Shown piece after piece: positions 1,943 to 43,147 of a DNA stretch of 64,000 bases (position 1 is the first letter of the stretch; the number at the start of each line of letters is the position of its first letter). The stretch lies in NCBI RefSeq assembly GCF_022045235.1, contig NW_027266267.1, positions 23,746,001-23,810,000 of the forward strand, read 5' to 3'. The notes below the pieces were generated by a model. That model had not been told where the DNA came from, searched no databases, and saw nothing but the letters and a program-made list of their open reading frames with translations. This DNA comes from Haliotis cracherodii (taxonomy: Eukaryota). Both the position numbers and the translations under genes were made by a program.

Positions 1943-2020
1943 AAAGGTATACTGCGTTACCACATCATAGTGTAGTTGTAAACCACATCACTATTGAGTA
2001 TCAAGAACATTGTATCAAAC

Positions 2021-2674
2021 ATGAGTCGCAGATTTACTCTCCACTCAGAGGTCAGCAGTATTTTAGAAGAGGAAGATAGCTTCAACCTTGCTGTTATTGG
2101 AGATAGCAGTGTAGGAAAGTCAACCTTAATCTGCAGACTCATCAAACACTGGACAGAACAGAGCAGCAAATCCCACAAGAAAAGTAAGAAACGTGGTAAC
2201 GCTCGAGCTGATCTTGGAATCAAAGGGCGAAGTCTGACAGTCAATATTGTGGACACATCCACAACGAAGACCTGCACCTTCCCGCAGGGATTCCCCTCCT
2301 TTGATGTATACGTGTTGGTGTACTCGCTGGTGTGTGATGACTCCTTTGAGTCTGTGGTAGCAGCCAGGGACCAGATCCTCCAGCAAGAGGGACCTTCAGT
2401 CCCAATAGTTTTCGTGGCCAACAAGACAGACATCGCAGGCTCTGTAGATAAGACCGAGAGAATGTCCCGAGATCTGAACATTAACTGTGAATGGGAACAT
2501 GGACACGTGGAGATCTCGGCTGAGAAGGACCTTAGTGTCTTACAGGTACTGGAACAGATTATGAAGCGACATCATAAACATGTTTCTGTGACTGATGAAA
2601 AAAAGACGCACTCACGTCTTTCTAAAAAGTTGCGATCAATCAAAAATTTCTTTTTAAGGAATAGACGACGTTAA
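2021..2674 (+). CDS. Atypical Ras-superfamily small GTPase, copy 1 (217 aa, intronless)
   Basis: First ATG (caaacATG) is at 2021; the ORF track starts at an upstream TTG. G1 GDSSVGKS, G3-like DTST, G4 NKTD, G5 SAE. YVLVYS...DSFESV and PIVFVANKTD are Ras/Rap/Di-Ras/RASD-like. TATA box upstream, AATAAA at 2791. Confidence 0.85.
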   Translation: MSRRFTLHSEVSSILEEEDSFNLAVIGDSSVGKSTLICRLIKHWTEQSSKSHKKSKKRGNARADLGIKGRSLTVNIVDTSTTKTCTFPQGFPSFDVYVLVYSLVCDDSFESVVAARDQILQQEGPSVPIVFVANKTDIAGSVDKTERMSRDLNINCEWEHGHVEISAEKDLSVLQVLEQIMKRHHKHVSVTDEKKTHSRLSKKLRSIKNFFLRNRRR

Positions 2675-3326: not shown

Positions 3327-4885
3327 TAGGTATAGGATAAAGCACGAATCCGAGGTTATGCTTGGGGATGTAAAACCCGAGGCGACAGGGGAGAGAAAAT
3401 GTAAGACCGAGGGCGAAGCCCCGAGGTCTTACATTTGGAATCCCCGATCACCGAGTGTTTTACATCCCGAGGCATAACCGAGGAGGAGTGTTGTATCTAG
3501 CTTAGAAACCGTGGGGAAACTGAAAATTTCGAGTGTATGAGAACTACGTTTTGATTCCCTGTACTGACGTAAGTTATAGAAAGTTGATCAGATCATGCAT
3601 GTGCCGATTATCACGCACTGCACGTGCAGATTGCTGGTACTTGGGAGAGGTTTTACAATTGTCATGTCACGTGACTAGGACGTAACCAAACATATCCTAG
3701 CTGACCGGATTATCACGTACTGCACGTGCAGATTGCCGATACTTGTGAGAGGTTTTACAATTGTCATGTCACGTGACCAGCTTCTTTTAAACGTGCGCAT
3801 TTCCACAGTAACCACACACTTTTACCGTGAACACGATGAGCGACGAGGACATCCTTCTAACCCATGCTCAGAAAATGGACACTTTCTACTACTCGCCATT
3901 AGCGAAACCCAAGGCAGACAGATGGTTCAGCAATTTCCCGATAGGACACAACACGCTTCAAGGCATAATCAAGTGACTGTGTCGGAATGCAGGAATCGAG
4001 GGAAAGCGAACAAATCACTCTCTCAGGGCAACTTCTGCCACCAGACTATAGAGAGCCAACGTTGATGGGCAACTTAATGGCGAGCAGACAGGTAAAGCAA
4101 CATTTTACGGATTGAAGTTTTTAAAAAAATATTTTTACTTCCATATTGGTGGCAAAGATAACATACAAATTATTTGTGGGCAACTATTTTGGAGTAGTGT
4201 TATCATTTGAAAGGTACAATTGATAGCGTATATGTTTCAGGCCATCGAAGCGAAACTGTGCGCACTTATAATCGGACATTCGAAGATCAGAAACTGCTGG
4301 TGTCGTACATCATCTATGGTGGTGGAAAGCAGAAAAAGTCTGTTACTGCCACTGCCACGAGACCACCTCCAGATGATGCTACTGCGCCGCCGTCAGTTGC
4401 TACTGCTACTGCTATTCCGTCATCTGCAGCACCGCCACCAGCCGTTTCCAGCGAAATTGTCTCTGATCACGACTTGCGAGAGAAAACCAAAAAAGACGCT
4501 TCGCGGAACATTTGTGTCACATTCAACTGCAGCTGAACTGTAAATGGCATGGTTTATGGCATCTCAGAATAAACATTCTTGAAATTGAAACATGTGTGTG
4601 TTGATTTATTTTAAAGAACTAATCCGCTACCCCACGCCTGGTTTGCGCCATGGGTCAGGTTAATAAATCTGTTGGTAAAACCTCAAGTGAGGAGCAGGTC
4701 AAAAAACAACCTGAACAACTCTACCAGAAAGGGACAAGTTAATAAATCTTCAGTATGGACCTCCCTCTGATCAGCAAGTATACTTGTTGGATAATCAGTA
4801 GTGAGCGGTTCATGCAGACTGGCGGTCATTCCACGATAGCAATGCACCCACGAAACAATAGACATAATTTACCCTAGGTTTCTAA
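3327..4885 (+). mobile_element. Crypton-like tyrosine-recombinase DNA element, internally deleted, both ends present
   Basis: Absent at homologous empty sites (12317, 26587, 38939, 48553). Encodes WFSNFPIGHNTL...NHSLRATSATRL...TGHRSETVRTY (DUF3504/YR C-terminal half) with an intron at 4092-4240. This copy has two premature stops. AATAAA at 4568. Confidence 0.85.
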
Positions 4886-5767
4886 TGTTCCATCAGGGTT
4901 GAATAGCAACCTGCTATCTGAGAGTATACTGACCTAACATTTTAATTGGAATGTATGTGTTTGATGTTTGACGCCACACAGCACTACTCCTGCCATACGA
5001 TGGGGTTCTGAAAAGGCAGTCGAAAATACCGGTGTTAGTATCTGGTGCATCTGTGAGTCTCACTGGAAAAGGCTTGTCTGAAATGAATAGGACAGAGTTT
5101 TAGTCTAATCTTTCGTGTCCGTCACGCCCTGCCGGAGACTTGTAAAACGTTAGCTGCCGTTTACCGCGGTCGAACCCTTGAGACACCTTCGGCTATTTGA
5201 AGTTGGAAATCACATGGACTGGTATTCTACAGTTTCTTACACATGTCATTGTTATACACCTTAAACTGCCTCCGTGGTGTATTTGATAGAACATCTACCC
5301 AGACAGCGGATAGTCAGTAGTTCAATTCCCTGACCGCTGTATACCAAAATATATGTAAATATGTTATAATTACTGGTTACCCTTCCGGGTTTAGGGGGAT
5401 TAGTCAAGAACTTGTCGGCCTGGAGTATGACGTACCCGGGTGGGATATCAATGTTAATCGGACGCACGCAAGCGCGAACGCAGGCACGCACGCAATAGCA
5501 TTTAGGTGACGTCATAGGGGGATAGGTGACGTCACGTTCAATAGTGACGTCATCTGGTTTGTTCTCTGACGTTTCCATATTTGTAAAAGTGGGTCAGTGA
5601 CATTTGTGTTGATTGCAGTAAATGTTTTTATTTGATAACAAATTCCATTTTTCAGGGCATTATCATTTGCAGAAGAAGCCAGTCTTCGTCGGGCAGTTAA
5701 TGGAAGACCTCGGGCTTCTGTAAATGATGATACCCTGAAAAATAGCGATACCCTTATAATACTAATT

Positions 5768-6244: not shown

Positions 6245-7342
6245 AGGTCCGTGTGACAGTTTACTGATGCTATGGCAACTGGCAAATTTGTAATTTTAGT
6301 GGTTGTTTCAGAAGGGGTTCTGGTGATTGAAGCATAGGTTTCTTTAGGTTCTGAGGTTGGCATCGACAAAACTAAGTTTGTGAATTGTATTTTGTTTATT
6401 TCCATTTGCTGTTTCTAGATTGGACAGTTTTTAGAGAAAGGTGGGTGATAACCTCAGCAGTTCATGCCTTTTTTATAAATGCTGTCGCAATCTTCTGTTA
6501 CGTGTGTTTTCTCCCAATGTGCAAGTACTCACGTGATGTCCACACTTTTGACATTTGAAGCACCTCAAAGGGTTAGGAGTGAAGATGCAAACCTTGTGAA
6601 TGCAATAGCCTGGTTTGACTGACTTGTGTGCAGTAGGAACAGAAAGCGAAAAGATATATATGTTTGTTTCAACAGTCTCGTTGTCTTTTCGCATTGTGAA
6701 TTGTTTGGCATATGCCACTCATAGATCTTTCATTTCAGAAACAATATCAATAATATCAGCAAACAATCGATCCCAGTCTCGTACAATACCTCTGCTGGTG
6801 TTCAGTGTTCTGTGAGGACACACCAGAAAAGGGACTGCAACAAATCTGTTGCCAATTCGCAACAGATTAGTTGCTTGTTGTTTTCTATTATATTCAAGTG
6901 ATAGGGACCTTGTGTGCAAGTGTTTAATGTTCTTAACTTCTCCTGGAGTGTCATGAAGACGAAGCCAATGACAACTTGATCTTGGACTTGCAGCACAAAG
7001 AATATCCGGATGATCATGACATTCACATGTCAAAGTCAAAAGATAACTTTTTCATCAGATCGGCCTCTGCGCCACAGCCTTCTGGCACGGACATCTAGGT
7101 AATTTTTGGATTTAAGAAGTAGAGTTAAAAAAGAAATGAACATAAATAATCATTTCCATTTTACATATACACTTCCAAGTCAAATAGTGATAGAACAAGA
7201 AGGGTGAGGTGTCCATAGCATGACCAGCCAATTAATAGAGCGGGGCCTATCCGTCCAGGCAACAACCGTCCAGGCAACATAAGGGTCACAGTGATGTATT
7301 GCGTAAAGAGACCAGTACCTCAACTACCAGAATCCCATCCAA
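6245..7342 (-). mobile_element. Decayed I/Nimb-like LINE 5'UTR + ORF1 (gag). Copies: ~13720-14818, 21060-22150, 28010-29107, 34940-35997, 44480-45540
   Basis: SRGIVRD...IPNPLRCFKCQKxGH zinc knuckle with stops; 5' part is homologous to 51180-51320. Confidence 0.75.
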
Positions 7343-9817
7343 ACTATAGAAACTTAGGTTAATCTTTCGTTGAATGGTAGTACTCTACACTGGATGAGTT
7401 CACCAGTTAACGATCATAACGTCATCAAGTATCATTAAGTATCCTTAAGTCTGATACTGGAGATATTTCCTCACGTATCCTAAAGTATCATAATTGTCCT
7501 ATTACCTCAGATGTCTTGAAGTCTGATACTGGTCAATGACCAAATTGAGCAACGCGTTGCTCTCCCTATTCGAACTTGACCTGAGTAGCGTGGGCACTAG
7601 TGGCGGAAAGCCCAATATCTCAGCTTTTTAAGGTGTCACAACTCTGATTCACACCTTTCAACGCGTAACGAAGAGTCATCAGAAAGATGATATTTCCGGC
7701 AGCTTTCGGTAAAGTAACCCGAATTTAATGTGCAAATCTGGGTCAAGAGTTGAATGTTCTTGAAAAAGCATACATGTTTTTCCCACAAAAGATGCACCAT
7801 GGTTGCTTCCCTGAAACTAGCAATCGTGTCCTTGTCCAACTTCTTTCCATAAAGATTTGTAAAAATCTATATTTTATATATTTCAAAAGAGCAAAAGGCA
7901 CCACTTCAGCATATGACTGATACATCTTTCAAGTTTTCGAGCAAATATACTGAATGACTTACGAATTCTGCCCCGGAAACGAACTCCATTCCCAATGGAG
8001 TATATGTCCAACTTGACTAGAGTTAAAAAAGAAATGAACATAAATAATCAAACATTTCCATTTTACATATACACTTTCAAGTCAAATAGTGATAGAACAA
8101 GAAGGGTGAGGTGTCCATAGCATGACCAGCCAATTAATAGAGCGGGGCCTATCCGTCCAGGCAACAACCGTCCAGGCAACATAAGGGTCACAGGGGATGT
8201 ATTGCGTAAAGAGACCAGTACCTCAACTACCAGAATCCCATCCAAACTATAGAAACTTAGGTTAATCTTTCGTTGAATGGTAATACTCTACACTGGATGA
8301 GTTCACCAGTTAACGATCATAACGTCATCAAGTATCATTAAGTATCCTTAAGTCTGATACTGGAGATATTTCCTCACGTATCCTAAAGTATCATAATTGT
8401 CCTATTACCTCAGATGTCTTGAAGTCTGATACTGGTCAATGACCAAATTGAGCAACGCGTTGCTCTCCCTATTCGAACTTGACCTGAGTAGCGTGGGCAC
8501 TAGTGGCGGAAAGCCCAATATCTCAGCTTTTTAAGGTGTCACAACTCTGATTCACACCTTTCAACGCGTAACGAAGAGTCATCAGAAAGATGATATTTCC
8601 GGCAGCTTTCGGTAAAGTAACCCGAATTTAATGTGCAAATCTGGGTCAAGAGTTGAATGTTCTTGAAAAAGCATACATGTTTTTCCCACAAAAGATGCAC
8701 CATGGTCGCTTCCCTGAAACTAGCAATCGTGTCCTTGTCCAACTTCTTTCCATAAAGATTTGTAAAAATCTATATTTTATATATTTCAAAAGAGCAAAAG
8801 GCACCACTTCAGCATATGACTGATACATCTTTCAAGTTTTCGAGCAAATATACTGAATGACTTACGAATTCTGCCCCGGAAACGAACTCCATTCCCAATG
8901 GAGTATATGTCCAACTTGACTAGAGTTAAAAAAGAAATGAACATAAATAATCAAACATTTCCATTTTACATATACACTTTCAAGTCAAATAGTGATAGAA
9001 CAAGAAGGGTGAGGTGTCCATAGCATGACCAGCCAATTAATAGAGCGGGGCCTATCCGTCCAGGCAACAACCGTCCAGGCAACATAAGGGTCACAGGGGA
9101 TGTATTGCGTAAAGAGACCAGTACCTCAACTACCAGAATCCCATCCAAACTATAGAAACTTAGGTTAATCTTTCGTTGAATGGTAATACTCTACACTGGA
9201 TGAGTTCACCAGTTAACGATCATAACGTCATCAAGTATCATTAAGTATCCTTAAGTCTGATACTGGAGATATTTCCTCACGTATCCTAAAGTATCATAAT
9301 TGTCCTATTACCTCAGATGTCTTGAAGTCTGATACTGGTCAATGACCAAATTGAGCAACGCGTTGCTCTCCCTATTCGAACTTGACCTGAGTAGCGTGGG
9401 CACTAGTGGCGGAAAGCCCAATATCTCAGCTTTTTAAGGTGTCACAACTCTGATTCACACCTTTTAACGCGTAACGAAGAGTCATCAGAAAGATGATATT
9501 TCCGGCAGCTTTCGGTAAAGTAACCCGAATTTAATGTGCAAATCTGGGTCAAGAGTTGAATGTTCTTGAAAAAGCATACATGTTTTTCCCACAAAAGATG
9601 CACCATGGTCGCTTCCCTGAAACTAGCAATCGTGTCCTTGTCCAACTTCTTTCCATAAAGATTTGTAAAAATCTATATTTTATATATTTCAAAAGAGCAA
9701 AAGGCACCACTTCAGCATATGACTGATACATCTTTCAAGTTTTCGAGCAAATATACTGAATGACTTACGAATTCTGCCCCGGAAACGAACTCCATTCCCA
9801 ATGGAGTCTAAGTCCAA
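7120..9817 (+). repeat. ~903-bp tandem triplication
   Basis: Units start at 7120, 8018 and 8921, with junction gtccaacttgac|tagagttaaa. Confidence 0.95.
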
Positions 9818-11009
9818 TATCTGTCCCTAAAACTGTTTAAAAAAATAACATTCGAAAAATCCCATGATAGATTTTCCAAGTTTCTATCAAATACACTGAA
9901 AAGTTTTCGATTTCTGCCCCAGTAAAGGAAATGATTATGGACAGACAGACGGACAGACGGACGGACGAACAGACAGACTGGCGTCTTATAGAAACAGTTA
10001 GCATGTGTGAATGGTACTAATGAAAGTGTATTCTATCAGTTCTATAAAGTCACAACTTTTAACAATAGTGAGAAATAAACATCTGAAAGAAACACCAGAA
10101 ATTGGATGGAACAATTGTTGGGATTGAATGGAAAATAAAGTAAGTCTTCTCATGGCTAAACTTCATAATGCATGATGAGTGACTTTAATTTCCTTGATTA
10201 GTAATGCTCTACACGAGAGGAGATCATCAGGCCATGTCATTTTATAAGGTATCCCAAAGTCTTAATATATAGATCAAATTCCTCAGGTATCCCAAAGTCT
10301 AAAAAGGTCATATTTCCTTGCGTATCCAAAAAGAGTAATAATTGTCATAGTTCCTCAGATATTTGGAATGCACACAATTATGGGTAAATAATATATTCAG
10401 TAATGGTGTGGTAAAATATATGAATATTTATTTTGTCACTGCTTCAAAGGGGACACAGGTGGCCAAGTCGTCTAAGGCGCCGCGATTAGCTGTGCAGAAT
10501 TGCAACCCTTGGGTATGTCAGGAACCTATGATTGTTGGTTCGAAACGCGGTCCGCCCCGATCATGTTATTAGATTTGTGAGCACCATACCCGTGCTCATT
10601 GGTTTCACCGAAGTGGTAAACGTCTGAGACCTGCATCACTTTGGGCTTTCCTCCCACATTAACCTGATACGCCATGATATAACTGGAATACTGTTAAAAG
10701 CGGCACTAAAACCAACTCACTGACTACTTCAAAATGCAAGGAACGAAATAGTTAAATATTAAAAAAGGTATTTAAACACGTTCTCTAATGAAGCGTGGAT
10801 GGCAACGTGGAACAGATGTTCGCACATTTCTTGGCCAATGAGTACAGATACATGGTAAGGGCTGAGAGTTTTCTGATATAGTTATGGAACATGTCTACTA
10901 TTTCAATTTACACACATTACCTCTATAAAAGAAAGGTATGCTGCGTTACCACATCATAGTGTAGTTGTAAACCACATCACTATTGAGTATCAAGAACAAT
11001 GTATCAAAC

Positions 11010-11663
11010 ATGAGTCGCAGATTTACTCTCCACTCAGAGGTCAGCAGTATTTTAGAAGAGGAAGATAGCTTCAACCTTGCTGTTATTGGAGATAGCAGTG
11101 TAGGAAAGTCAACCTTAATCTGCAGACTCATCAAACACTGGACAGAACAGAGCAGCAAATCCCACAAGAAAAGTAAGAAACGTGGTAACGCTCGAGTTGA
11201 TCTTGGAATCAAAGGGCGAAGTCTGACAGTCGATATTGTGAACACATCCACAACGAAGACCTGCACCTTCCCGCAGGGATTCCCCTCCATTGATGTATAC
11301 GTGTTGGTGTACTCGCTGGTGTGTGATGACTCCTTTGAGTCTGTGGTAGCAGCCAGGGACCAGATCCTCCAGCAACAGGGACCTTCAGTCCCAATAGTGT
11401 TCGTGGCCAACAAGACAGACATCGCTGACTCTGTAGATAAGACCGAGAGAATGTCCCGAGATCTGAACATTAACTGTGAATGGGAACATGGACACGTGGA
11501 GATCTCGGCTGAGAAGGACCTTAGTGTCTTGCAGGTACTGGAACAGATTATGAAGCGACATCATAAACATGTTTCTGTAACTGATGAAAAAAAGACGCAC
11601 TCACGTCTTTCTAAAAAGTTGCGATCAATCAAAAATTTCTTTTTAAGGAATAGACGACGTTAA
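11010..11663 (+). CDS. Atypical Ras-like GTPase, copy 2 (G3 Asp->Asn)
   Basis: Near-identical to copy 1 with intact frame; NTST at G3. Confidence 0.8.
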   Translation: MSRRFTLHSEVSSILEEEDSFNLAVIGDSSVGKSTLICRLIKHWTEQSSKSHKKSKKRGNARVDLGIKGRSLTVDIVNTSTTKTCTFPQGFPSIDVYVLVYSLVCDDSFESVVAARDQILQQQGPSVPIVFVANKTDIADSVDKTERMSRDLNINCEWEHGHVEISAEKDLSVLQVLEQIMKRHHKHVSVTDEKKTHSRLSKKLRSIKNFFLRNRRR

Positions 11664-14600
11664 AGTGGTATTTCTATTGAGGAACTTTCAGTGTCCAAAA
11701 TAACTGAAATTGTATGCATAATATATGTTCATGTCTTTTAACAATATGTCATACTCATAGTCACATAATACCAATAAATCAGTGAATATTTAAATCTGAA
11801 TTTGTTTTTTTAAAAGGTTGTTTGATTTGTTCAAGAAGGGTACCATGTACGATGACACGCTTTAAGTCAAATTACAGAATCTGACCAGTATTTTCAGTCT
11901 GTGTAATCCACAGAGGGACACTCGTGTCATGAGTTCATGAGTATCGGTACAAACGGTATTGTCGATGTGGGCTAGTAGCACTTAGACACTTGATGTCAAC
12001 AAGGCTAGATAACTGCTTGGAATGACATGAAAAAGGGTCTTTCAGGAAATGATTGCAGTTGATAAATGAGTGATACTAGTTTAATCTCATGTTTCTCATT
12101 TGACAACATACCTATCTTTGAACCACTCATCATGAGAATAACATCCAAAATGTTGTTTCCTCAAAATGTATTTACTATGCCGAAAGGGTGTCTGTTCGTA
12201 GTACATTACATTGAAACCTATAAAGGGTGTATTTGTAAGTGGCCATGTCAATAGTTGAAATCAATACCCCAAAAAAATAAACACACGCGTCGTCTAGAAG
12301 TATCTTTCATATTTTTCAGTGTTCCATCGGGGTTGAATAGCAACCTGCTATCTGAGAGTATATCAACATTTTCATTAGAATGTATGTGTTCGATATTTGA
12401 CGCCTCACAGCACTACTCCTGCCATACGATGGGGTTCTGAAAAGGCAGTCGAAAATACCGGTGCTAGTTTCTCGTGCATCAGTTAGTCTCACTGGAAAAG
12501 GCTTGTCTGAAAGGAATAGGACAGAGTTTTAGTCTAATGCTTCGTGTCCGTCACGCCCTGCCGGAGACGTGTAAAACGTTAGGTGCCGTTTACCGCGGTC
12601 GAACCCTTGAGCCACTTTCGGCTATTTGAAGTTGGAAGTCACATGGACTGGTATTCTACAGTTTCTTACACATGTCACTTGCTATACACTTTAAACCATC
12701 TCCGTGGTGTATTTGATAGAACATCTACCCAGACAGCGGATAGTCAGTAGTTCAATTCCCTGACAGCTGTATACCAAAATATATGTAAATATGTTATAAT
12801 TACTTGTTACCCTTCCAGGTTTTGGGGTGATTAGTCAAGAACTTGTCGGCCTTGAGTATAACGTACCCGGGTGGGTTATCAATGTTTATCTGTCGCATGC
12901 ACGCACGAACGCACGCACGCACGCAATAGCATTTAGGTGTGATGTCATAGGGGATAGGTGACGTCACGTTCAATAGTGACGTCATCTGGTTTGTTCTCTG
13001 ACGTTTTCATATTTGCAAAGTGGGTCAGTGACATTTCTGTTGATTGCAGTAAATGTTTTAAAACCGATATTGTTGTTACTTTTTATTTGATAACAAATTC
13101 CATTTTTCTGGGCATTATCATTTGCAGAAGAAGCCAGTCTTCGTCAGGCAGTTAATGGAAGACCTCGGGCTTCTGCAAATGATGATGCCCTGAAAAATAG
13201 CGTTACCCTTATAATACTGATTGGGGCGGTCGGGTAGCCTAGTGGTTAAAGTGTTCGCTCGTCACGCCAAAGCCCCGGGTTCGATATCCGACATGGGTAC
13301 GATGTGTGAAGCCCATTTTTGGTGTCCCCCGCTGTGATATTGCTGGAATATTGCAAAAAGCGGCGTAAAACCATACTCACTCACTCACTATAATACTAAT
13401 CAACTTAACAGACTCGCGTTGCCTCCTGACGTACAGGCATTAGCCGGTAGTTACACATTACATTTATCACACATTTCCCTGTTTAACACACGCAGTAATG
13501 ATACGAGCTTCACACTCTCTTAGGTGTTTCGATTGCATCTTTATTCCAAGCTGTCTCAGATGTGTCACTTGACTCAGAGAAGTGACTCACTACTCCTCAT
13601 TAGTTTTCAGGATGTGTGAAAGAATAAATATTGCTTTACGCCGCATCAGCAATATTACAGTTAGTCGCGTCGAGAAACAGTATGTGCTTATCAAGAAATG
13701 TTATATAAGGATGATGTTATATAAGTCCGTGTGACAGTTTACTGATGCTGTGGCAACTGGCAAATTTGTCATTTTAGTGGTTGTTTCAGAAGGCGTTCTG
13801 GTGATTGAAGCATAGGTTTCTTTAGGTTCTGAGGTTGGCATCGACAAAACTAGGTTTGTGAATTGTATTTTGTTTATTTCCATTTGCTGTTTCTAGATTG
13901 GACAGTTTTTAGAGAAAGGTGGGTGATCACCTCAGCAGTTCATGCCTTTTTTATAAAGGCTGTCGCAATCTTCTGTTACGTGTGTTTTCTCCCAATGTGC
14001 AAGTTCTTACGTGATGTCCATACTTTTGACATTTGAAGCACCTCAAAGGGTTAGGAATGAAGATGCAAACCTTATGAATGCAATAGCCTGGTTTAAATGA
14101 TTTGTATGCAGTAAGGGCAGAAAACGAAAAGATGTATGTGTTTGTTTCAACAGTCTCGTTGTCTTTTCGCATTGTGAATTGTTTGGCATATGCCACTCAT
14201 TGATCTTTCATTTCAGAAACAATATCAATAATATCAGCAAACAGTTGATCCCAGTCTCGTACAATACCTCTGCTGGTGTTCAGTGTTCTGTGAGGACACA
14301 CCAGAAAAGGGACTGCAACAAATCTGTTGCCAATTCGCAACAGATTAGTTGCTTGTTGTTTTCTATTATATTCAAGTGATAGGGTCCTTGTGTGCAAGCG
14401 TTTAATGTTCTTAACTTCTCCTGGAGTGTCATGAAGACGAAGCCAATGACAACTTGATCTTGGACTTGCAGCACCAAGAATATTTGGACGACATTCACAT
14501 TGAGAAAAGTCAAAAGATAACTTTTTAACAAGATCGGCCTCTGCGCCACAGCCTTCTGGCACTGACATTTAGGTAATGTTTGTATTTAAGAAGTAGAGTT

Positions 14601-16847
14601 GAAATAAATGAACATGAATAATCAAACATTTCCATTTTACATATACACTTCCAAGTCAAATAGTGATAGAACAAGAAGAGAAAGGTGTCCATAGCATGAC
14701 CAGCCAATTGATAGGGCGGGGCCTATCCTGATAACCGTCCAGGCAACATAAGGGTCATGTACAGGGGTGTATTGCATAAAGGGACCAGTACCTCAACTAC
14801 TAGAATCCCATCCTCCACCGAGTACTTCGTGTGAAAAACTTAGCAATTTTTATTTTTTTCGGGGGGGGGAGGGGGGGGGGGGGGGGAGAATATAGAAACT
14901 TAGGTTAATCTTTTGTTGATTGGTAATACCCTACACTGGATGAGTTCACCAGTTAACGATCATAACGATCACATTGCCCTCGGTATCCAAAAGTATGATA
15001 CTGGTCATATTGGCGCAGGTATTAAAATGGCTGTAGTATCCTTAAGTCTGATACTGGAGATATTTCCTCACGTATCCTAAATTGTCTCATAATTGTCCTA
15101 TTACCTCAGATGTCTTAAGTCTGATACTGGTCAATGACCAAATTGAGCAACGCGTTGCTCTCCCTATTCGAACTTTGACCAGAGTAGCATGGGCACTAGT
15201 GGCGGAAAGCCCAATATCTCAGCTTTTTAAGGTGTCACAACTCTGATTTTCACCTTTTAACGCATAAAGAAGAGTCATCAGAAAGATGATATTTCCGGCA
15301 GCTGTCTGTAAAGTAACCAGAAATAAATGTGGAAATCTGGGTCAAGAGCTGAATGTTCTTGAAAAAGCATACATGTTTTTCCCACAAAAGATGCACCATG
15401 GTCGCTTCCGTGAAACTAGCAATCGTGTCCTTGTCCAATTTCTTTCCATAAAGATTTGTAAAAATATATATTTTAAATATTAAAAAATAGCAAAAGGCAC
15501 CACTTCATCATATGACTGATACATCTTTCAAGTTTCGAGCAAATATACTGAATGGCTTACGAATTCTGCCCCGGAAGCGAACCCCATCACCAATGGAGTC
15601 TAAGTCCAACTTCTGTCCCTAAATTTTATTTTATTTTAAAAATTCAAAAAATTCCATGATAGATTTTCCAAGTTTCTATCAGTTACACTGAATAGTTTTC
15701 GATTTCTGCCCCAGTAAAGGAAATGATTTCGGACAGACGGACAGACAGACGGACGGACGAACAGACAGACTGACGTCTTATAGAAACAGTTAGCATGTGT
15801 GAATAGTACTAATGAAAGTGTATTCTATCAGTTCCTTAAAGTCACAACTTTTAACAATAGTCAGAAATAAACATCTGAAAGAAACACCAGAAATTGGATG
15901 AAACAATTGTTGGGATTGAATGGAAAATAAAGTAAGTCTTCTCATGGCTAAACTTCATAATGCATGATGAGTGACTTTAATTTCGTTGATTAGTAATGCT
16001 CTACACGAGAGGAGACCATCAGGCCATGTCATTTTATAAGGTATCCCAAAGTCTATAGATCAAATTGCCTCATGTATCCCAAAGTCTAATAAGGTCATAT
16101 TTCCTCGCGTATCCAAAAGAGTAATAATTGTCATATTTCCTCAGATATTTTGAATTCAAACAATTATGGGTAAATAAAGTCACGTTAAGGGATCAACCGT
16201 ATAATATATTCAGTTATGGTGTGGTAAAATACATGAATATTTATTTTGTCACTGCTTCAAGGGGGACACAGGTGGCTAAGGTGTCTAAGGCGCCGCGATT
16301 AGCTGTGCAGAATTGCGACCCTTGGGTACGTCAGGAACCTATGATTGTTGGTTCGAAACCCGGTTCGCCCCGATCATGTTTTTAGATTTGTCAGCACCAT
16401 ACCCGTGCTCGTGGGTTTCACCGAAGTGGTAAACGTCTGAGACCTGCATCACTTTGGGCTTTCCTCCCACACTAAGCTGATACGCCGTGATATAACTGGA
16501 ATACTGTTAAAAGCGGCATTAAACCCAACTCACTGACTGCTACAAGATGCAAGGCGCAAAATAGTTAAATATTTAAAAAAGGTGTTTAAACACGTTCTCT
16601 GATGAAGCGTGTGTCACTGGGTGGCAACGTGGAACAGATGTTCGCACATTTCTTGGCCAATGAGTGCAATGCAGTACAAGTCGATACAGATACATGGTAA
16701 GGGCTGAGAGTTTTCTGATACAGTTATGGAACATGTCTACTATTTCAATTTACACACATTACCTCTATAAAAGAAAGGTATACTTACCACATCATAGTGT
16801 AGTTGTAAACCACATCACTATTGAGTATCAAGAACATTGTATCAAAC

Positions 16848-17501
16848 ATGAGTCGCAGATTTACTCTCCACTCAGAGGTCAGCAGTATTTTAGAAGAGGA
16901 AGATAGCTTCAACCTTGCTGTTATTGGAGATAGCAGTGTAGGAAAGTCAACCTTAATCTGCAGACTCATCAAACACTGGACAGAACAGAGCAGCAAATCC
17001 CACAAGAAAAGTAAGAAACGTGGTAACGCTCGAGTTGATCTTGGAATCAAAGGGCGAAGTCTGACAGTCGATATTGTGGACACATCCACAACGAAGACCT
17101 GCACCTTACTGCGGGGACTCCCCTCCATTGATGTATACGTGTTGGTGTACTCGCTGGTGTGTGATGACTCCTTTGAGTCTGTGGTAGCAGCCAGGGACCA
17201 GATCCTCCAGCAACAGGGACCTTCAGTCCCAATAGTTTTCGTGGCCAACAAGACAGACATCGCTGACTCTGTAGATAAGACCGAGAGAATGTCCCGAGAT
17301 CTGAACATTAACTGTGAATGGGAACATGGACACGTGGAGATCTCGGCTGAGAAGGACCTTAGTGTCTTGCAGGTACTGGAACAGATTATGAAGCGACATC
17401 ATAAACATGTTTCTGTAACTGATGAAAAAAAGACGCACTCACGTCTTTCTAAAAAGTTGCGATCAATCAAAAATTTCTTTTTAAGGAATAGACGACGTTA
17501 A
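16848..17501 (+). CDS. Atypical Ras-like GTPase, copy 3
   Basis: Intact frame, same motifs; switch II region TCTLLRGLPSI. Confidence 0.8.
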   Translation: MSRRFTLHSEVSSILEEEDSFNLAVIGDSSVGKSTLICRLIKHWTEQSSKSHKKSKKRGNARVDLGIKGRSLTVDIVDTSTTKTCTLLRGLPSIDVYVLVYSLVCDDSFESVVAARDQILQQQGPSVPIVFVANKTDIADSVDKTERMSRDLNINCEWEHGHVEISAEKDLSVLQVLEQIMKRHHKHVSVTDEKKTHSRLSKKLRSIKNFFLRNRRR

Positions 17502-18153: not shown

Positions 18154-19701
18154 TAGGTATAGGATAAAGCACGAATCCGAGGTTATGCTTGGGGATGTAA
18201 AACCCGAGGCGACAGGGGAGAGAAAATGTAAGACCGAGGGCGAAGCCCCGAGGTCTTACATTTGGAATCCCCGATCACCGAGTGTTTTACATCCCGAGGC
18301 ATAACCGAGGAGGAGTGTTGTATCTAGCTTAGAAACCGTGGGGAAACTGAAAATTTCGAGTGTATGAGAACTACGTTTTGATTCCCTGTACTGACGTAAG
18401 TTATAGAAAGTTGATCAGATCATGCATGTGCCGATTATCACGCACTGCACGTGCAGATTGCTGGTACTTGGGAGAGGTTTTACAATTGTCATGTCACGTG
18501 ACTAGGACGTAACCAAACATATCCTAGCTCACCGGATTATCACGCACTGCACGTGCAGATTGCCGATACTTGTGAGAGGTTTTACAATTGTCATGTCACG
18601 TGACCAGCTTCTTTTTAAACGTGCGCATTTCCACAGTAACCACACACTTTTACCGTGAACACGATGAGCGACGAGGACATCTTTCTAACCCATGCTCAGA
18701 AAATGGACACTTTCTACTACTTGCCATTAGCGAAACCCAAGGCAGACAGATGGTTCAGCAATTTCCCGATAGGACACAACACGCTTCAAAGCATAATCAA
18801 GCGACTGTGTCGGAATGCAGGAATCGAGGGAAAGCGAACAAATCACTCTCTCAGGGCAACTTCTGCCACCAGACTATACAGAGCCAACGTTAATGGGGAG
18901 CAGACAGGTAAAGCAACATTTTACGGATTGAAGTTTTAAAAAAAATATTTTTACTTCCAAATTGGTGGCAAAGATAACATACAAATTATTTGTGGGCAAC
19001 TATTTTGGAGTAGTGTTATCATTTGAAAGGTACAATTGATAGCGTATATGTTTCAGGCCATCGAAGCGAAACTGTGCGCACTTATAATCGGACATCCGAA
19101 GATCAGAAACTGCTGGTGTCGTACATCATCTATGGTGGTGGAAAGCAGAAAAAGTCTGTTACTGCCACTGCCACGAGACCACCTCCAGATGATGCTACTG
19201 CGCCGCCGTCAGTTGCTACTGCTACTGCTATTCCGTCATCTGCAGCACCGCCACCAGCCGTTTCCAGCGAAATTGTCTCTGATCACGACTTGCGAGAGAA
19301 AACCAAAAAAGACGCTTCGCGGAACATTTGTGTCACATTCAACTTCAGCTGAACTGTAAATGGCATGGTTAATGGCATCTCAGAATAAACATTCTTGAAA
19401 TTGAAACATGTGTGTGTTGATTTATTTTAAAGAACTAATCCGCTACCCCACGCCTGGTTTGCGCCATGGGTCAGGTTAATAAATCTGTTGGTAAAACCTC
19501 AAGTGAGGGGCAGGTCAATAAACAACCTGAACAACTCTACCAGAAAGGGACAAGTTAATATATCTTCAGTATGGACCTCCCTCTGATCAGCAAGTATACT
19601 TGTTGGATAATCAGTAGTGAGCGGTTCATGCAGACTGGCGGTCATTCCACGATAGCAATGCACCCACGAAACAATAGACATAATTTACCCTAGGTTTCTA
19701 A
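18154..19701 (+). mobile_element. Crypton-like element, second copy, both ends present
   Basis: Same ends and hairpin; spliced frame 18664-18907 + 19057-19352 is open (179 aa). Confidence 0.85.
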
Positions 19702-21936: not shown

Positions 21937-24611
21937 TAGAGTTAAAAAAGAAATGAACATAAATAATCATTTCCATTTTACATATACACTTCCAAGTCAA
22001 ATAGTGATAGAACAAGAAGGGTGAGGTGTCCATAGCATGACCAGCCAATTAATAGAGCGGGGCCTATCCTAACAACCGTCCAGGCAACATAAGGGTCACA
22101 GGGGTGTATTGCGTAAAGAGACCAGTACCTCAACTACCAGAATCCCATCCAAACTATAGAAACTTAGGTTAATCTTTCGTTGAATGGTAATACTCTACAC
22201 TGGATGAGTTCACCAGTTAACGATCATAACGTCATCAAGTATCATTAAGTATCCTTAAGTCTGATACTGGAGATATTTCCTCACGTATCCTAAAGTATCA
22301 TAATTGTCCTATTACCTCAGATGTCTTGAAGTCTGATACTGGTCAATGACCAAATTGAGCAACGCGTTGCTCTCCCTATTCGAACTTGACCTGAGTAGCG
22401 TGGGCACTAGTGGCGGAAAGCCCAATATCTCAGCTTTTTAAGGTGTCACAACTCTGATTCACACCTTTCAACGCGTAACGAAGAGTCATCAGAAAGATGA
22501 TATTTCCGGCAGCTTTCGGTAAAGTAACCCGAATTTAATGTGCAAATCTGGGTCAAGAGTTGAATGTTCTTGAAAAAGCATACATGTTTTTCCCACAAAA
22601 GATGCACCATGGTCGCTTCCCTGAAACTAGCAATCGTGTCCTTGTCCAACTTCTTTCCATAAAGATTTGTAAAAATCTATATTTTATATATTTCAAAAGA
22701 GCAAAAGGCACCACTTCAGCATATGACTGATACATCTTTCAAGTTTTCGAGCAAATATACTGAATGACTTACGAATTCTGCCCCGGGAACGAACTCCATT
22801 CCCAATGGAGTATATGTCCAACTTGACTAGAGTTAAAAAAGAAATGAACATAAATAATCAAACATTTCCATTTTACATATACACTTTCAAGTCAAATAGT
22901 GATAGAACAAGAAGGGTGAGGTGTCCATAGCATGACCAGCCAATTAATAGAGCGGGGCCTATCCTAACAACCGTCCAGGCAACATAAGGGTCACAAGGGT
23001 GTATTGCGTAAAGAGACCAGTACCTCAACTACCAGAATCCCATCCAAACTATAGAAACTTAGGTTAATCTTTCGTTGAATGGTAATACTCTACACTGGAT
23101 GAGTTCACCAGTTAACGATCATAACGTCATCAAGTATCATTAAGTATCCTTAAGTCTGATACTGGAGATATTTCCTCACGTATCCTAAAGTATCATAATT
23201 GTCCTATTACCTCAGATGTCTTGAAGTCTGATACTGGTCAATGACCAAATTGAGCAACGCGTTGCTCTCCCTATTCGAACTTGACCTGAGTAGCGTGGGC
23301 ACTAGTGGCGGAAAGCCCAATATCTCAGCTTTTTAAGGTGTCACAACTCTGATTCACACCTTTCAACGCGTAACGAAGAGTCATCAGAAAGATGATATTT
23401 CCGGAAGGTTTCGGTAGAGTAACCCGAATTTAATGTGCAAATCTGGGTCAAGAGTTGAATGTTCTTGAAAAAGCATACATGTTTTTCCCACAAAAGATGC
23501 ACCATGGTCGCTTCCCTGAAACTAGCAATCGTGTCCTTGTCCAACTTCTTTCCATAAAGATTTGTAAAAATCTATATTTTATATATTTCAAAAGAGCAAA
23601 AGGCACCACTTCAGCATATGACTGATACATCTTTCAAGTTTTCGAGCAAATATACTGAATGACTTACGAATTCTGCCCCGGAAACGAACTCCATTCCCAA
23701 TGGAGTATATGTCCAACTTGACTAGAGTTAAAAAAGAAATGAACATAAATAATCAAACATTTCCATTTTACATATACACTTTCAAGTCAAATAGTGATAG
23801 AACAAGAAGGGTGAGGTGTCCATAGCATGACCAGCCAATTAATAGAGCGGGGCCTATCCTAACAACCGTCCAGGCAACATAAGGGTCACAAGGGTGTATT
23901 GCGTAAAGAGACCAGTACCTCAACTACCAGAATCCCATCCAAACTATAGAAACTTAGGTTAATCTTTCGTTGAATGGTAATACTCTACACTGGATGAGTT
24001 CACCAGTTAACGATCATAACGTCATCAAGTATCATTAAGTATCCTTAAGTCTGATACTGGAGATATTTCCTCACGTATCCTAAAGTATCATAATTGTCCT
24101 ATTACCTCAGATGTCTTGAAGTCTGATACTGGTCAATGACCAAATTGAGCAACGCGTTGCTCTCCCTATTCGAACTTGACCTGAGTAGCGTGGGCACTAG
24201 TGGCGGAAAGCCCAATATCTCAGCTTTTTAAGGTGTCACAACTCTGATTCACACCTTTCAACGCGTAACGAAGAGTCATCAGAAAGATGATATTTCCGGC
24301 AGCTTTCGGTAAAGTAACCCGAATTTAATGTGCAAATCTGGGTCAAGAGTTGAATGTTCTTGAAAAAGCATACATGTTTTTCCAACAAAAGATGCACCAT
24401 GGTCGCTTCCCTGAAACTAGCAATCGTGTCCTTGTCCAACTTCTTTCCATAAAGATTTGTAAAAATCTATATTTTATATATTTCAAAAGAGCAAAAGGCA
24501 CCACTTCAGCATATGACTGATACATCTTTCAAGTTTTCGAGCAAATATACTGAATGACTTACGAATTCTGCCCCGGAAACGAACTCCATTCCCAATGGAG
24601 TCTAAGTCCAA
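21937..24611 (+). repeat. ~895-bp tandem triplication
   Basis: Units start at 21937, 22828 and 23723, with the same junction. Confidence 0.95.
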
Positions 24612-31710: not shown

Positions 31711-32172
31711 AGTGGTATTTCAATTGAGGAACTTTCAGTGTCCAAAATAACACATTAACTGAAATTGTATGCATAATATATGTTCATGTCTTTTAACAAT
31801 ATGTCATACTCATAGTCACATAATACCAATAAATCAGTGAATATTTAAATCTGAATTTGTTTTTTTTAAAAGGATGTTTGATTTGTTCAAGAAGGGTACC
31901 ATGTACGATGACACGCTTTAAGTCAAATCACAGAATCTGACCAGTATTTTCAGTCTGTGTAATCCACAGAGGGACTGTCGTGTCATGAGTTCATGAGTAT
32001 CGGTACAAACGGTATTGTCGATGTGGGCTAGTAGCACTTAGACACTTGATGTCATCAAGGCTAGATAACTGCTTGGAATGACATGAAAAAGGGTCTTTCA
32101 GGAAATGATTGCAGTTTATAAATGAGTGATACTAGTTTAATCTAATGTTTCTCATTTGACAACATACCTACC

Positions 32173-33613
32173 TTTGGAATCCCCGATCACCGAGTGTTTT
32201 ACATCCCGAGGCATAATCGAGGAGGAGTGTTGTATCTAGCTTAGAAACCTTGGGGAAACTGAAAATTTCGAGTGTATCAGAACTACGTTTTGATTCCCTG
32301 TACTGACGTAAGTTATAGAACGTTGATCAGATCATGCATGTGCCGATTATCACGCACTGCAAGTGCAGATTGCTGGTACTTGGGAGAGGTTTTACAATTG
32401 TCATGTCACGTGACTAGGACGTAACCAAACATATCCTAGCTCACCGGATTATCACGCACTGCACGTGCAGATTGCCGATACTTGTGAGAGGTTTTACAAT
32501 TGTCATGTCACGTGACCAGCTTCTTTTTAAACGTGCGCATTTCCACAGTAACCACACACTTTTACCGTGAACACGATGAGCGACGAGGACATCTTTCTAA
32601 CCCATGCTCAGAAAATGGACACTTTCTACTACTCGCCATTAGCGAAACCCAAGGCAGACAGATGGTTCAGCAATTTCCCGATAGGACACAACACGCTTCA
32701 AAGCATAATCAAGCGACTGTGTCGGAATGCAGGAATCGAGGGAAAGCGAACAAATCACTCTCTCAGGGCAACTTCTGCCACCAGACTATACAGAGCCAAC
32801 GTTAATGGGGAGCAGACAGGTACAGCAACATTTTACGGATTGAAGTTTTAAAAAAAATATTTTTACTTCCAAATTGGTGGCAAAGATAACATACAAATTA
32901 TTTGTGGGCAACTATTTTGGAGTAGTGTTATCATTTGAAAGGTACAATTGATAGCGTATATGTTTCAGGCCATCGAAGCGAAACTGTGCGCACTTATAAT
33001 CGGACATCCGAAGATCAGAAACTGCTGGCGTCGTACATCATCTATGGTGGTGGAAAGCAGAAAAAATCTGTTACTGCCACTGCCACGAGACCACCTCCAG
33101 ATGATGCTACTGCGCCGCCGTCAGTTGCTACTGCTACTGCTATTCCGTCATCTGCAGCACCACCACCAGCCGTTTCCAGCGAAATTGTCTCTGATCACGA
33201 GTTGCGAGAGAAAACCAAAAAAGACGCTTCGCGGAACATTTGTGTCACATTCAACTTCAGCTGAACTGTAAATGGCATGGTTTATGGCATCTCAGAATAA
33301 ACATTCTTGAAATTGAAACATGTGTGTGTTGATTTATTTTAAAGAACTAATCCGCTACCCCACGCCTGGTTTGCGCCATGGGTCAGGTTAATAAATCTGT
33401 TGGTAAAACCTCAAGTGAGGGGCAGGTCAATAAACAACCTGAACAACTCTACCAGAAAGGGACAAGTTAATAAATCTTCAGTATGGACCTCCCTCTGATC
33501 AGCAAGTATACTTGTTGGATAATCAGTAGTGAGCGGTACATGCAGACTGGCGGTCATTCCACGATAGCAATGCACCCACGAAACAATAGACATAATTTAC
33601 CCTAGGTTTCTAA
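32173..33613 (+). mobile_element. Crypton-like element, left end deleted
   Basis: ~300-bp deletion at a tttg microhomology removes the left end, left hairpin arm and loop; intron 32820-32968. Confidence 0.8.
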
Positions 33614-41244: not shown

Positions 41245-41706
41245 AGTGGTATTTCAATTGAGGAACTTTCAGTGTCCAAAATAACACATTAACTGAAATT
41301 GTATGCATAATATATGTTCATGTCTTTTAACAATATGTCATACTCATAGTCACATAATACCAATAAATCAGTGAATATTTAAATCTGAATTTGTTTTTTT
41401 TAAAAGGATGTTTGATTTGTTCAAGAAGGGTACCATGTACGATGACACGCTTTAAGTCAAATCACAGAATCTGACCAGTATTTTCAGTCTGTGTAATCCA
41501 CAGAGGGACTGTCGTGTCATGAGTTCATGAGTATCGGTACAAACGGTATTGTCGATGTGGGCTAGTAGCACTTAGACACTTGATGTCATCAAGGCTAGAT
41601 AACTGCTTGGAATGACATGAAAAAGGGTCTTTCAGGAAATGATTGCAGTTTATAAATGAGTGATACTAGTTTAATCTAATGTTTCTCATTTGACAACATA
41701 CCTACC

Positions 41707-43147
41707 TTTGGAATCCCCGATCACCGAGTGTTTTACATCCCGAGGCATAATCGAGGAGGAGTGTTGTATCTAGCTTAGAAACCTTGGGGAAACTGAAAAT
41801 TTCGAGTGTATCAGAACTACGTTTTGATTCCCTGTACTGACGTAAGTTATAGAACGTTGATCAGATCATGCATGTGCCGATTATCACGCACTGCACGTGC
41901 AGATTGCTGGTACTTGGGAGAGGTTTTACAATTGTCATGTCACGTGACTAGGACGTAACCAAACATATCCTAGCTCACCGGATTATCACGCACTGCACGT
42001 GCAGATTGCCGATACTTGTGAGAGGTTTTACAATTGTCATGTCACGTGACCAGCTTCTTTTTAAACGTGCGCATTTCCACAGTAACCACACACTTTTACC
42101 GTGAACACGATGAGCGACGAGGACATCTTTCTAACCCATGCTCAGAAAATGGACACTTTCTACTACTCGCCATTAGCGAAACCCAAGGCAGACAGATGGT
42201 TCAGCAATTTCCCGATAGGACACAACACGCTTCAAAGCATAATCAAGCGACTGTGTCGGAATGCAGGAATCGAGGGAAAGCGAACAAATCACTCTCTCAG
42301 GGCAACTTCTGCCACCAGACTATACAGAGCCAACGTTAATGGGGAGCAGACAGGTAAAGCAACATTTTACGGATTGAAGTTTTAAAAAAAATATTTTTAC
42401 TTCCAAATTGGTGGCAAAGATAACATACAAATTATTTGTGGGCAACTATTTTGGAGTAGTGTTATCATTTGAAAGGTACAATTGATAGCGTATATGTTTC
42501 AGGCCATCGAAGCGAAACTGTGCGCACTTATAATCGGACATCCGAAGATCAGAAACTGCTGGCGTCGTACATCATCTATGGTGGTGGAAAGCAGAAAAAA
42601 TCTGTTACTGCCACTGCCACGAGACCACCTCCAGATGATGCTACTGCGCCGCCGTCAGTTGCTACTGCTACTGCTATTCCGTCATCTGCAGCACCACCAC
42701 CAGCCGTTTCCAGCGAAATTGTCTCTGATCACGAGTTGCGAGAGAAAACCAAAAAAGACGCTTCGCGGAACATTTGTGTCACATTCAACTTCAGCTGAAC
42801 TGTAAATGGCATGGTTTATGGCATCTCAGAATAAACATTCTTGAAATTGAAACATGTGTGTGTTGATTTATTTTAAAGAACTAATCCGCTACCCCACGCC
42901 TGGTTTGCGCCATGGGTCAGGTTAATAAATCTGTTGGTAAAACCTCAAGTGAGGGGCAGGTCAATAAACAACCTGAACAACTCTACCAGAAAGGGACAAG
43001 TTAATAAATCTTCAGTATGGACCTCCCTCTGATCAGCAAGTATACTTGTTGGATAATCAGTAGTGAGCGGTACATGCAGACTGGCGGTCATTCCACGATA
43101 GCAATGCACCCACGAAACAATAGACATAATTTACCCTAGGTTTCTAA
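41707..43147 (+). mobile_element. Crypton-like element, left end deleted
   Basis: Duplicate of 32173-33613; intron 42354-42502. Confidence 0.8.

Follow-up and report, generated by a model that had tools for sequence, protein, structure and literature searches.

The window analysed here is a stretch of 64,000 nucleotides from the 1.18-Gb genome of Haliotis cracherodii (contig NW_027266267.1, positions 23,746,001 to 23,810,000 of the forward strand), and it comprises a Ras-like gene region arranged as a tandem array. The single-frame Ras-family gene lies at 1982-2674 (+) and in about seven further tandem copies, for example at 10971-11663 and 16809-17501; it matches PF00071 (E 5e-17) and, by eye, has an altered G3 motif and a basic C-terminus and lacks a CAAX box. 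Within the larger array a unit of about 900 bp also occurs as three head-to-tail copies, at 7290-9590 and at 22100-24380.

The array carries a mobile element (family W) that begins with a long, imperfect hairpin. The element derives from a Crypton by internal deletion, with the hairpin as its 5' end, an assignment that we base on the dispersal of the element, its fixed ends, the absence of a target-site duplication and its two relic recombinase exons. The features of this element, of its further copies and of a second family (S) in the window are as follows.

3330..4885 (+): internally deleted, non-autonomous Crypton of family W, 1,556 bp, without target-site duplication; empty alleles exist and dispersed copies have the same ends
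3330..3336 (+): predicted transferred-strand spacer, the first 7 nt; same start in dispersed copies with an intact 5' end
3336..3497 (+): terminal hairpin with arms of about 78 nt
3346-47/3486-87, 3352-53/3480-81, 3379-80/3453-54 and 3409-10/3423-24 (+): tandem GA pairs
3393-94/3439-40 (+): fifth tandem GA pair, present in the consensus and mutated in the window copy
3386-87/3446-47 (+): CA/GA loop
3413..3419 (+): GCGAAGC mini-hairpin apex
3497..3501 (+): 5-nt counter-spacer, facing the first 7 nt when folded
3502..3521 (+): internal stretch complementary to the 3' terminus, exact over 9 nt, 16/20 in all
3606-3678 and 3708-3780 (+): two 73-bp direct repeats
3866..4096 (+): relic tyrosine-recombinase exon that covers the end of DUF3504 up to and including the H-x-x-R motif; the window copy has two in-frame stops
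4231..4329 (+): relic of the last exon, which includes the GH...Y catalytic stretch
4866..4885 (+): 3' terminus, with TAA last and its complement at 3502-3521
5500..5758 (-): 5' part of a family S mini-element (about 410 bp elsewhere), unrelated to family W and with the same end design; hairpin partly deleted, left limit approximate
18157..19701 (+): second full copy of family W, carried along by tandem duplication of the host region
32169..33613 (+): family W copy that has lost the first 100 nt of the hairpin and the flank
41703..43147 (+): family W copy with the same 5' deletion as 32169..33613

The window element and its terminal hairpin

The insertion can be read from the array itself, as the 1,556-bp stretch is absent from four units, whole in two and 5'-deleted in two; the empty alleles lie at 12319/20, 26589/90, 38941/42 and 48555/56, and an empty allele is present too in contigs of two other runs. 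Family W is dispersed across many contigs with identical ends, unrelated flanks and no target duplication. Longer copies hold more recombinase exons and are broken, and no intact autonomous partner of the family was found. Among the matches listed for the element none was an RNA that holds it, and the long window frames 4198-4533, 4211-4540 and 3679-4062 have no Pfam match. The base at -3 of the junction (window 3327) is T in the filled alleles and C in the four empty alleles and the two other runs; in this single case either an earlier mutation that improved the target or conversion at insertion could account for the difference.

The original prediction, made from the letters of the window, described a terminal hairpin with three pairs of arms centred on GCGAAGC (3413-3419) and with CGAG facing CGAG at 3351/3479, 3378/3452 and 3408/3422. 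Arms and apex were found where it had placed them, the three CGAG pairs share one common axis (coordinate sum 6833; the motif itself stands at 3351, 3378, 3408, 3422, 3452, 3468 and 3479), and the structure is indeed terminal, the element starting at 3330. This axis lies half a base off the loop centre, which gives a 1-nt bulge beside the apex. The three GA:GA places are real but too few: the consensus of 15 copies has five GA/GA loops and one CA/GA loop with no further 2x2 loop, and relative to it the window copy is somewhat decayed. The further claim that only the top strand folds is overstated, in that a long hairpin is predicted on both strands, at -42.4 kcal/mol for the top strand (z -8.5) and -40.7 kcal/mol for the bottom strand (z -8.8), in each case with 0 of 200 shuffles as good, and the gap in the window copy is 1.7 kcal/mol.

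Words of the hairpin stem are repeated elsewhere in the element, at 3650-3660 and 3752-3762 (given without statistics), and recur also at the 3' end of one other locus (L094) and downstream of the gene in four more (L163, L166, L169 and L200); they may be arm-type binding sites. The unrelated family S, also found at window positions 13213, 20574, 27502, 34506, 44048 and 49484, has GA/GA pairs, a C-GAA-G apex and a 20-nt complement of its 3' end, and most of its copies have lost part of the hairpin.

The recombinase, its relatives and known elements

The recombinase was identified through a genome search with a short catalytic stretch; a search pattern with 2-nt stems round GCGAAGC gave 3 matches. 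The relic exon of the window matches a 311-aa DUF3504 protein of the same genome (tblastn E 6e-19), which itself scores 118 bits on DUF3504. Compared with Pfam directly, the short relic pieces fall below the cut-off for DUF3504, and the copy at 18694 lies above it for Phage_integrase. Two full-length relatives match DUF3504, Phage_integrase and, weakly, QRICH1 only, with neither GCR1_C nor another enzyme domain beside the recombinase in these two proteins, and in full elements of 2.2-2.4 kb the one long frame is the recombinase. The young families F (L115:5480-7054) and E (L111:5453-7051) have intact frames of 524 and 532 aa with the catalytic residues present; copies of family F are 99.5% alike, families F and E together 99.5-99.8%, and one family F insertion is polymorphic between runs. 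For the modelled family F enzyme (mean pLDDT 80.7) the best fold matches are QRICH1 and Cre, and those to Xer, integron and Tn1549 integrases come next. There is no special likeness to IntI, with the integron integrase at rank 36, and a sequence search of solved structures returned QRICH1 only.

We call these elements CryptonA-like for their traits, namely a DUF3504-type recombinase and the lack of both terminal inverted repeats and target duplication, the tree having taken in proteins of this genome only. In these traits and in giving rise to deletion derivatives they resemble CryptonA and its non-autonomous relatives as described in parts of PMC3212892 and, for Glomhopper, PMC13465315, and they differ in their strand-coded hairpin of 120-190 nt, in the internal stretch that complements the 3' end and in a target that is defined and symmetric. 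The fixed 4-6-bp direct repeat at both termini that is a trait of CryptonF and CryptonS is not seen, the left TAN being only loosely like TAA and position -1 free.

Several other classes of element were considered and rejected. IS200/IS605 and Helitron2/Helentron resemble the present elements in strand-specific end hairpins, the lack of target duplication and short asymmetric inverted repeats (partial accounts in PMC13565253 and PMC8969392), but they use HUH enzymes, and Helitron2/Helentron was set aside because the coding relic and the frames of its relatives specify a tyrosine recombinase and no HUH Rep/helicase. DIRS elements share a tyrosine recombinase and an internal stretch complementary to the ends (from part of PMC13465315); here the recombinase is the sole long frame of the full elements, reverse transcriptase is absent, and the complement abuts the terminal hairpin. 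Integron membership, which would take intI with attI and a cassette array, was rejected for elements that are self-contained and dispersed in an animal genome.

For comparison between families, 80 recombinase loci taken from 133 genome matches were scanned for hairpins with strand-neutral scoring, and a strong hairpin was present at most 3 kb upstream or at most 2 kb downstream in 54 of them, leaving 26 without. The 20 families compared below comprise 18 that are anchored by a recombinase, with their hairpins grouped by hand, together with the window family and a single mini-element family, which were added by likeness. In every case the hairpin was read along the strand that begins with the element end, a choice that is independent of GA content.

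Element ends, target footprint and strand exchange

In 11 of the 11 families with both ends, the 3' terminus matches, as reverse complement, the DNA that directly follows the hairpin, over 4-17 nt exactly and at 8-17 of 20 positions, and it reads TAA, or CAA in one family. In the same 11 families the 5' arm exceeds its counter-strand by exactly two bases, so that 7 stand opposite 5; the element start was fixed by varying flanks in six of them (W, B, C, F, G and S) and partly by analogy in five. Once joined, the ends would give a folded recombinase site whose spacer has 7 nt facing 5 nt, and for the window element joining in silico gives a predicted -54.5 kcal/mol, against -44.3 kcal/mol in place. 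Taken as a duplex, the joined ends have a 7-bp spacer in most families and still resemble a recombinase core. No end-to-start joint was present among the matches listed for the window element or family F, which cover about 1% of each raw run in a genome where tandem copies exist, and this has no power either way. Elements are also stacked head to tail, between families as well as within them (L273, L216, L217, L229, L114 and L117); such neighbours are accounted for by how well 3' ends serve as targets, and they are no proof of circles.

The target was defined in the abundant family G, whose ends were collected by matching inner patterns exactly (337 3' ends and 321 5' ends; the lists show the first 100 of either kind). 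Sixty stretches from the first 80 rows of the 3'-end list, excluding tandems, near-duplicates, rows already in the sample and a few others, provided 61 3' ends, 40 of them with their 5' end. T is found at -3 in 34/40 and A at -2 in 35/40, with T at +8 in 41/61 and A at +9 in 42/61 (p 1e-8 or less against 0.31), and among the 61 3' ends there is no excess of T at +9 or of A at +10. The upstream class agrees (T+8 26/43, A+9 28/43), as does family S (T+8 14/18, A+9 17/18). The target is symmetric, TAN-N6-NTA, with a 6-bp spacer, the TA of the joined ends lying mostly one base further out, and homology with it is confined to +1 (A in 38/61 for family G, G in 18/43 for the upstream class). The family 7-mer, allowing at most two mismatches, starts all 40 of the 5' ends and stands alone at none of the 61 3' ends, in two of which a similar 7-mer follows and leads on into what looks like another family. 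By eye the 7-mer is seen at 98 of the 100 listed 5' ends and 0 of the 100 listed 3' ends, the latter including 4 full tandems and 5 that run into the start of another element. At the family F insertion that is missing in two other runs, 2,251 nt are skipped and 2 letters shared. Read from sequence in this way, the footprint points to an exchange of one strand, in which the GA strand would be cut after TAN and after TAA.

Tyrosine recombinases act through a 3'-phosphotyrosine and as a rule exchange two strands; in integrons a single strand is exchanged, and replication is required (from part of PMC3458562). We consider it reasonably probable that the Crypton 5'-end hairpin is likewise a folded, one-strand site for the tyrosine recombinase of the element, comparable to integron attC; this folded-strand reading, drawn from the sequence, is the likely one. 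The end would become single-stranded or extruded, the apex, the sheared GA pairs and the G.T pairs making the end strand fold faster and hold better than its complement. The enzyme would then cut the end strand after TAN on the left and TAA on the right and join the ends into a circle, and the joined ends would pair with the internal complement to give a core site with 7 nt opposite 5, of which the 7-nt side alone would be cut. One strand would be exchanged with a double-stranded TAN, 6 bp, NTA target, and replication would resolve the junction without duplication. The 7/5 offset may be what suppresses the second cut, a guess for which the extrahelical T of attC (PMC3458562) is the model.

One-strand footprints by themselves leave open whether the donor is single- or double-stranded, and they fit equally well a double-stranded circle from which one strand is exchanged and resolved by replication, the hairpin being a priming or protection signal for the excised strand or a cruciform that is resolved on excision as by a telomere resolvase. 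Mini-hairpins do mark priming sites in single-stranded phage DNA (from part of PMC13037366), and the core-like duplex with its 7-bp spacer would suit such a donor. We nevertheless hold a duplex donor to be rather unlikely, as it leaves unexplained both the complement of the 3' end past the hairpin, with its fixed 2-nt offset in 11/11 families, and the target spacer of 6 rather than 7 bp, and as the head-to-head dimer centred on a hairpin that bears on the cruciform variant was absent among the ends displayed.

The published model (PMC3212892 and PMC13565253, each in part) has a double-stranded circle and two strand exchanges, in the style of Goodwin 2003 and Tn916/Tn1549, and would make the hairpin an accessory binding array. 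It draws on the weak homology at +1 and on a fold like those of Cre and the Tn1549 integrase. Two exchanges with unlike spacers would, however, be expected to place target bases 5' and the 7-mer 3' in roughly every second copy, which was seen in 0/61 and 0/100. Standard tyrosine-recombinase sites need spacers of equal length; those found here measure 6 and 7, and two exchanges would give the strand bias no reason. The model is largely contradicted, with biased heteroduplex repair as its remaining escape, and we regard it as quite improbable. The conjugative transposons Tn916 and Tn1549 carry coupling sequences; they are alike in tyrosine recombinase, AT-rich targets and the little homology needed, but no coupling sequence from a last target is carried here (0/61), and transposition of their type was set aside.

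The strand code of the hairpin

The end hairpin is a real, selected and strand-coded DNA structure. The original prediction held that the mismatches are selected, and counted across family members they are far from random: the 45 2x2 loops of the 20 family consensuses comprise 36 GA/GA and no TC/TC, families that share ancestry, so that counts are not independent, and several of which rest on one or two copies, with arbitrary ties in two-copy consensuses. Without the two families added by likeness GA/GA makes up 29 of 37 such loops, and at least one GA/GA loop is present in 19/20 families. Single G.T pairs outnumber A.C pairs on the element-end strand by 12 to 2 over the 20 consensuses, and individual copies have 162 GA/GA against 2 TC/TC. 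Among 34 other hairpins from the same loci only 3/33 2x2 loops are GA/GA or TC/TC, and the three hairpins concerned themselves resemble Crypton ends that have yet to be assigned. Tandem GA within CGAG blocks has been found by NMR to form sheared pairs (from part of PMC10085684).

We have asked whether GA/GA might be a by-product, either of CCGAGG-like protein sites placed as direct repeats in duplex DNA or of micro-inversions in near-palindromes, with no selection on folding. A C_G context is common to 29 of the 36 GA/GA loops, and GA and TC interconvert readily: GA to TC accounts for 16 of 43 double substitutions in single copies, some of them shared by descent, and TC to GA for 3 of 43, single copies often repairing GA to TC with the other arm as template. 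Inversion would predict TC/TC equally, contrary to 0 against 36 in the consensuses and 2 against 162 in copies; the GA/GA sites face each other across the axis in every case although spacing and stem sequence vary by family; and the excess of G.T falls on the same strand as GA. This explanation is accordingly very improbable to us, and since erosion of GA to TC is frequent in copies, the pattern persists against that erosion. Stem covariation among 14 related hairpins amounts to 37 cells against 15.9 +/- 3.1 when shuffled, a value inflated by relatedness, and two of the five covariation measures are weak (for 'further pair types' no excess over shuffles, 350/500; for changes on both sides 19/500, a weak excess). 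An outer GA pair kept in related families has been lost from the abundant family G mini-element. The inner hairpin is inverted in single copies at L126, L178, L186, L016 and L181, and many other copies have hairpin deletions; as chromosomal DNA the structure is thus not stable.

In 12 tree rows the hairpin is found upstream of the gene and GA is on the sense strand, in 8 it is found downstream and GA is on the antisense strand, and the two orientations correspond to two recombinase lineages (support 98/98 in a tree of this genome's proteins only); because gene orientation is opposite in the two lineages, the GA strand follows the element end and not the message. Of the 20 families, 13 have a GNA or GNNA apex and 1 has a mixed one; 3 have lost the apex by deletion, and in 3 it is rich in pyrimidines, these being the young, intact family F, with a TTT loop, and two more. 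Several of the 13 are not GNRA loops of the RNA type, in keeping with the prediction that the hairpin folds as DNA. According to part of PMC13037366, the melting point is 76.5 C for both d(GCGAAGC) and d(GCGAAAGC) and 39 C for r(GCGAAAGC), and GNA alone of the 64 triloops gives the mini-hairpin. Action as RNA, whether as a 5' leader or as a long hairpin transcript that blunts silencing, is the least credible explanation: RNA parameters do favour the same strand in 16/20 families, and GAAA and GTAA loops would be GNRA in RNA, but that strand is the sense strand in one lineage and, in the other, the antisense strand of a hairpin placed downstream, loops such as GAA, GCA, GGA, GTCA, GTTA and GATA are of the DNA type, the RNA hairpin melts so much lower than its DNA form, and the end complement has no explanation.

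In family G the first 100 of 198 genome matches give 98 distinct hairpins; counted by eye, the end strand has the purine apex in 95 of these, and 3 are flipped. Rolling-hairpin replicons of the parvovirus kind have flip and flop forms of the hairpin that are equally frequent, and flip-flop replication was rejected since 95 against 3 are not equal forms. The predicted gap between the strands has a median of 1.7 kcal/mol and the expected direction in 17/20 families, the 1999 and 2004 DNA parameter sets having given identical numbers and counting as one model, not two. This gap matches in size that of attC, which is 2.1 kcal/mol (from part of PMC5027507).

The resemblance to attC and IntI extends, in the parts of PMC5027507 and PMC3458562 that describe them, to an imperfect hairpin, a purine and G.T bias of one strand, a GAA apex and unpaired bases near the cut, and probably to a cut after AA and to exchange of one strand with a double-stranded partner. 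Unlike attC, the present site is eukaryotic, is split between two ends and complete only once they are joined, has tandem sheared GA along the stem and degenerate AT-rich targets, and is accompanied by no attI, cassette array or promoter. Against a folded strand stand the smallness of the gap and its reversal in 3/20 families, the TTT loop of family F, which also speaks against an essential loop, the recurrence of stem words in some elements, as would suit ordinary double-stranded binding sites, the 26/80 loci without a strong hairpin and the low rank of the integron integrase among fold matches. Weighing these, we lean somewhat towards the view that the animal Crypton recombinase reads the shape of DNA and not its sequence, and that the excised, GA-marked strand, with its 7/5 site, would enter nearly any TAN-N6-NTA by one exchange. 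The attP of CTX phage is a folded single strand on which a tyrosine recombinase, XerCD, acts and whose strand is set by wobble asymmetry; CTX is a phage that uses host XerCD and the dif site, whereas we describe a transposon.

Kojima and Jurka (2011) report no terminal repeats in animal Cryptons, and their main text has neither 'palindrom' nor 'stem' (PMC3212892, main text only); the main text of a 2026 fungal CryptonA paper has no 'hairpin', 'palindrom' or 'single-stranded', and that of a 2018 Repbase review neither 'hairpin' nor 'palindrom'. Crypton ends are nearly featureless according to a curation guide (PMC8969392, in part), the mechanism is undemonstrated and a double-stranded circle assumed in a 2026 review (PMC13565253, in part), and an active algal CryptonF shows clean excision plus copy gain (PMC9977147, in part). 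No publication was found on Crypton end hairpins or a single-strand route, where supplements (e.g. of PMC3212892) and Repbase/Dfam entries could mention hairpins; the searchable literature has no description of the end design or of the one-strand, 6-versus-7 footprint, and the kind of transposon is already known.

The end anatomy, the target rule and the footprints make the open question of the Crypton mechanism directly testable at oligonucleotide scale, with the young, intact families E and F at hand. If the folded-strand reading is true, folded-single-strand recombination, known from bacteria, also operates in animal nuclei, as a eukaryotic counterpart of integron recombination with tandem sheared GA pairs as a natural strand code, and a compact, host-independent integrase of single-stranded DNA could serve as a tool. 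The rule of a hairpin followed by a complement of the 3' end is in addition a way to find Crypton ends. Further long hairpin families with no recombinase assigned to them, at L173:10-180, L181:3492-3662, L175:2388-2575, L177:7142-7335 and L125:9000-9111 (coordinates on the recombinase-sense strand), are present among the loci, and some of them look like Crypton ends.
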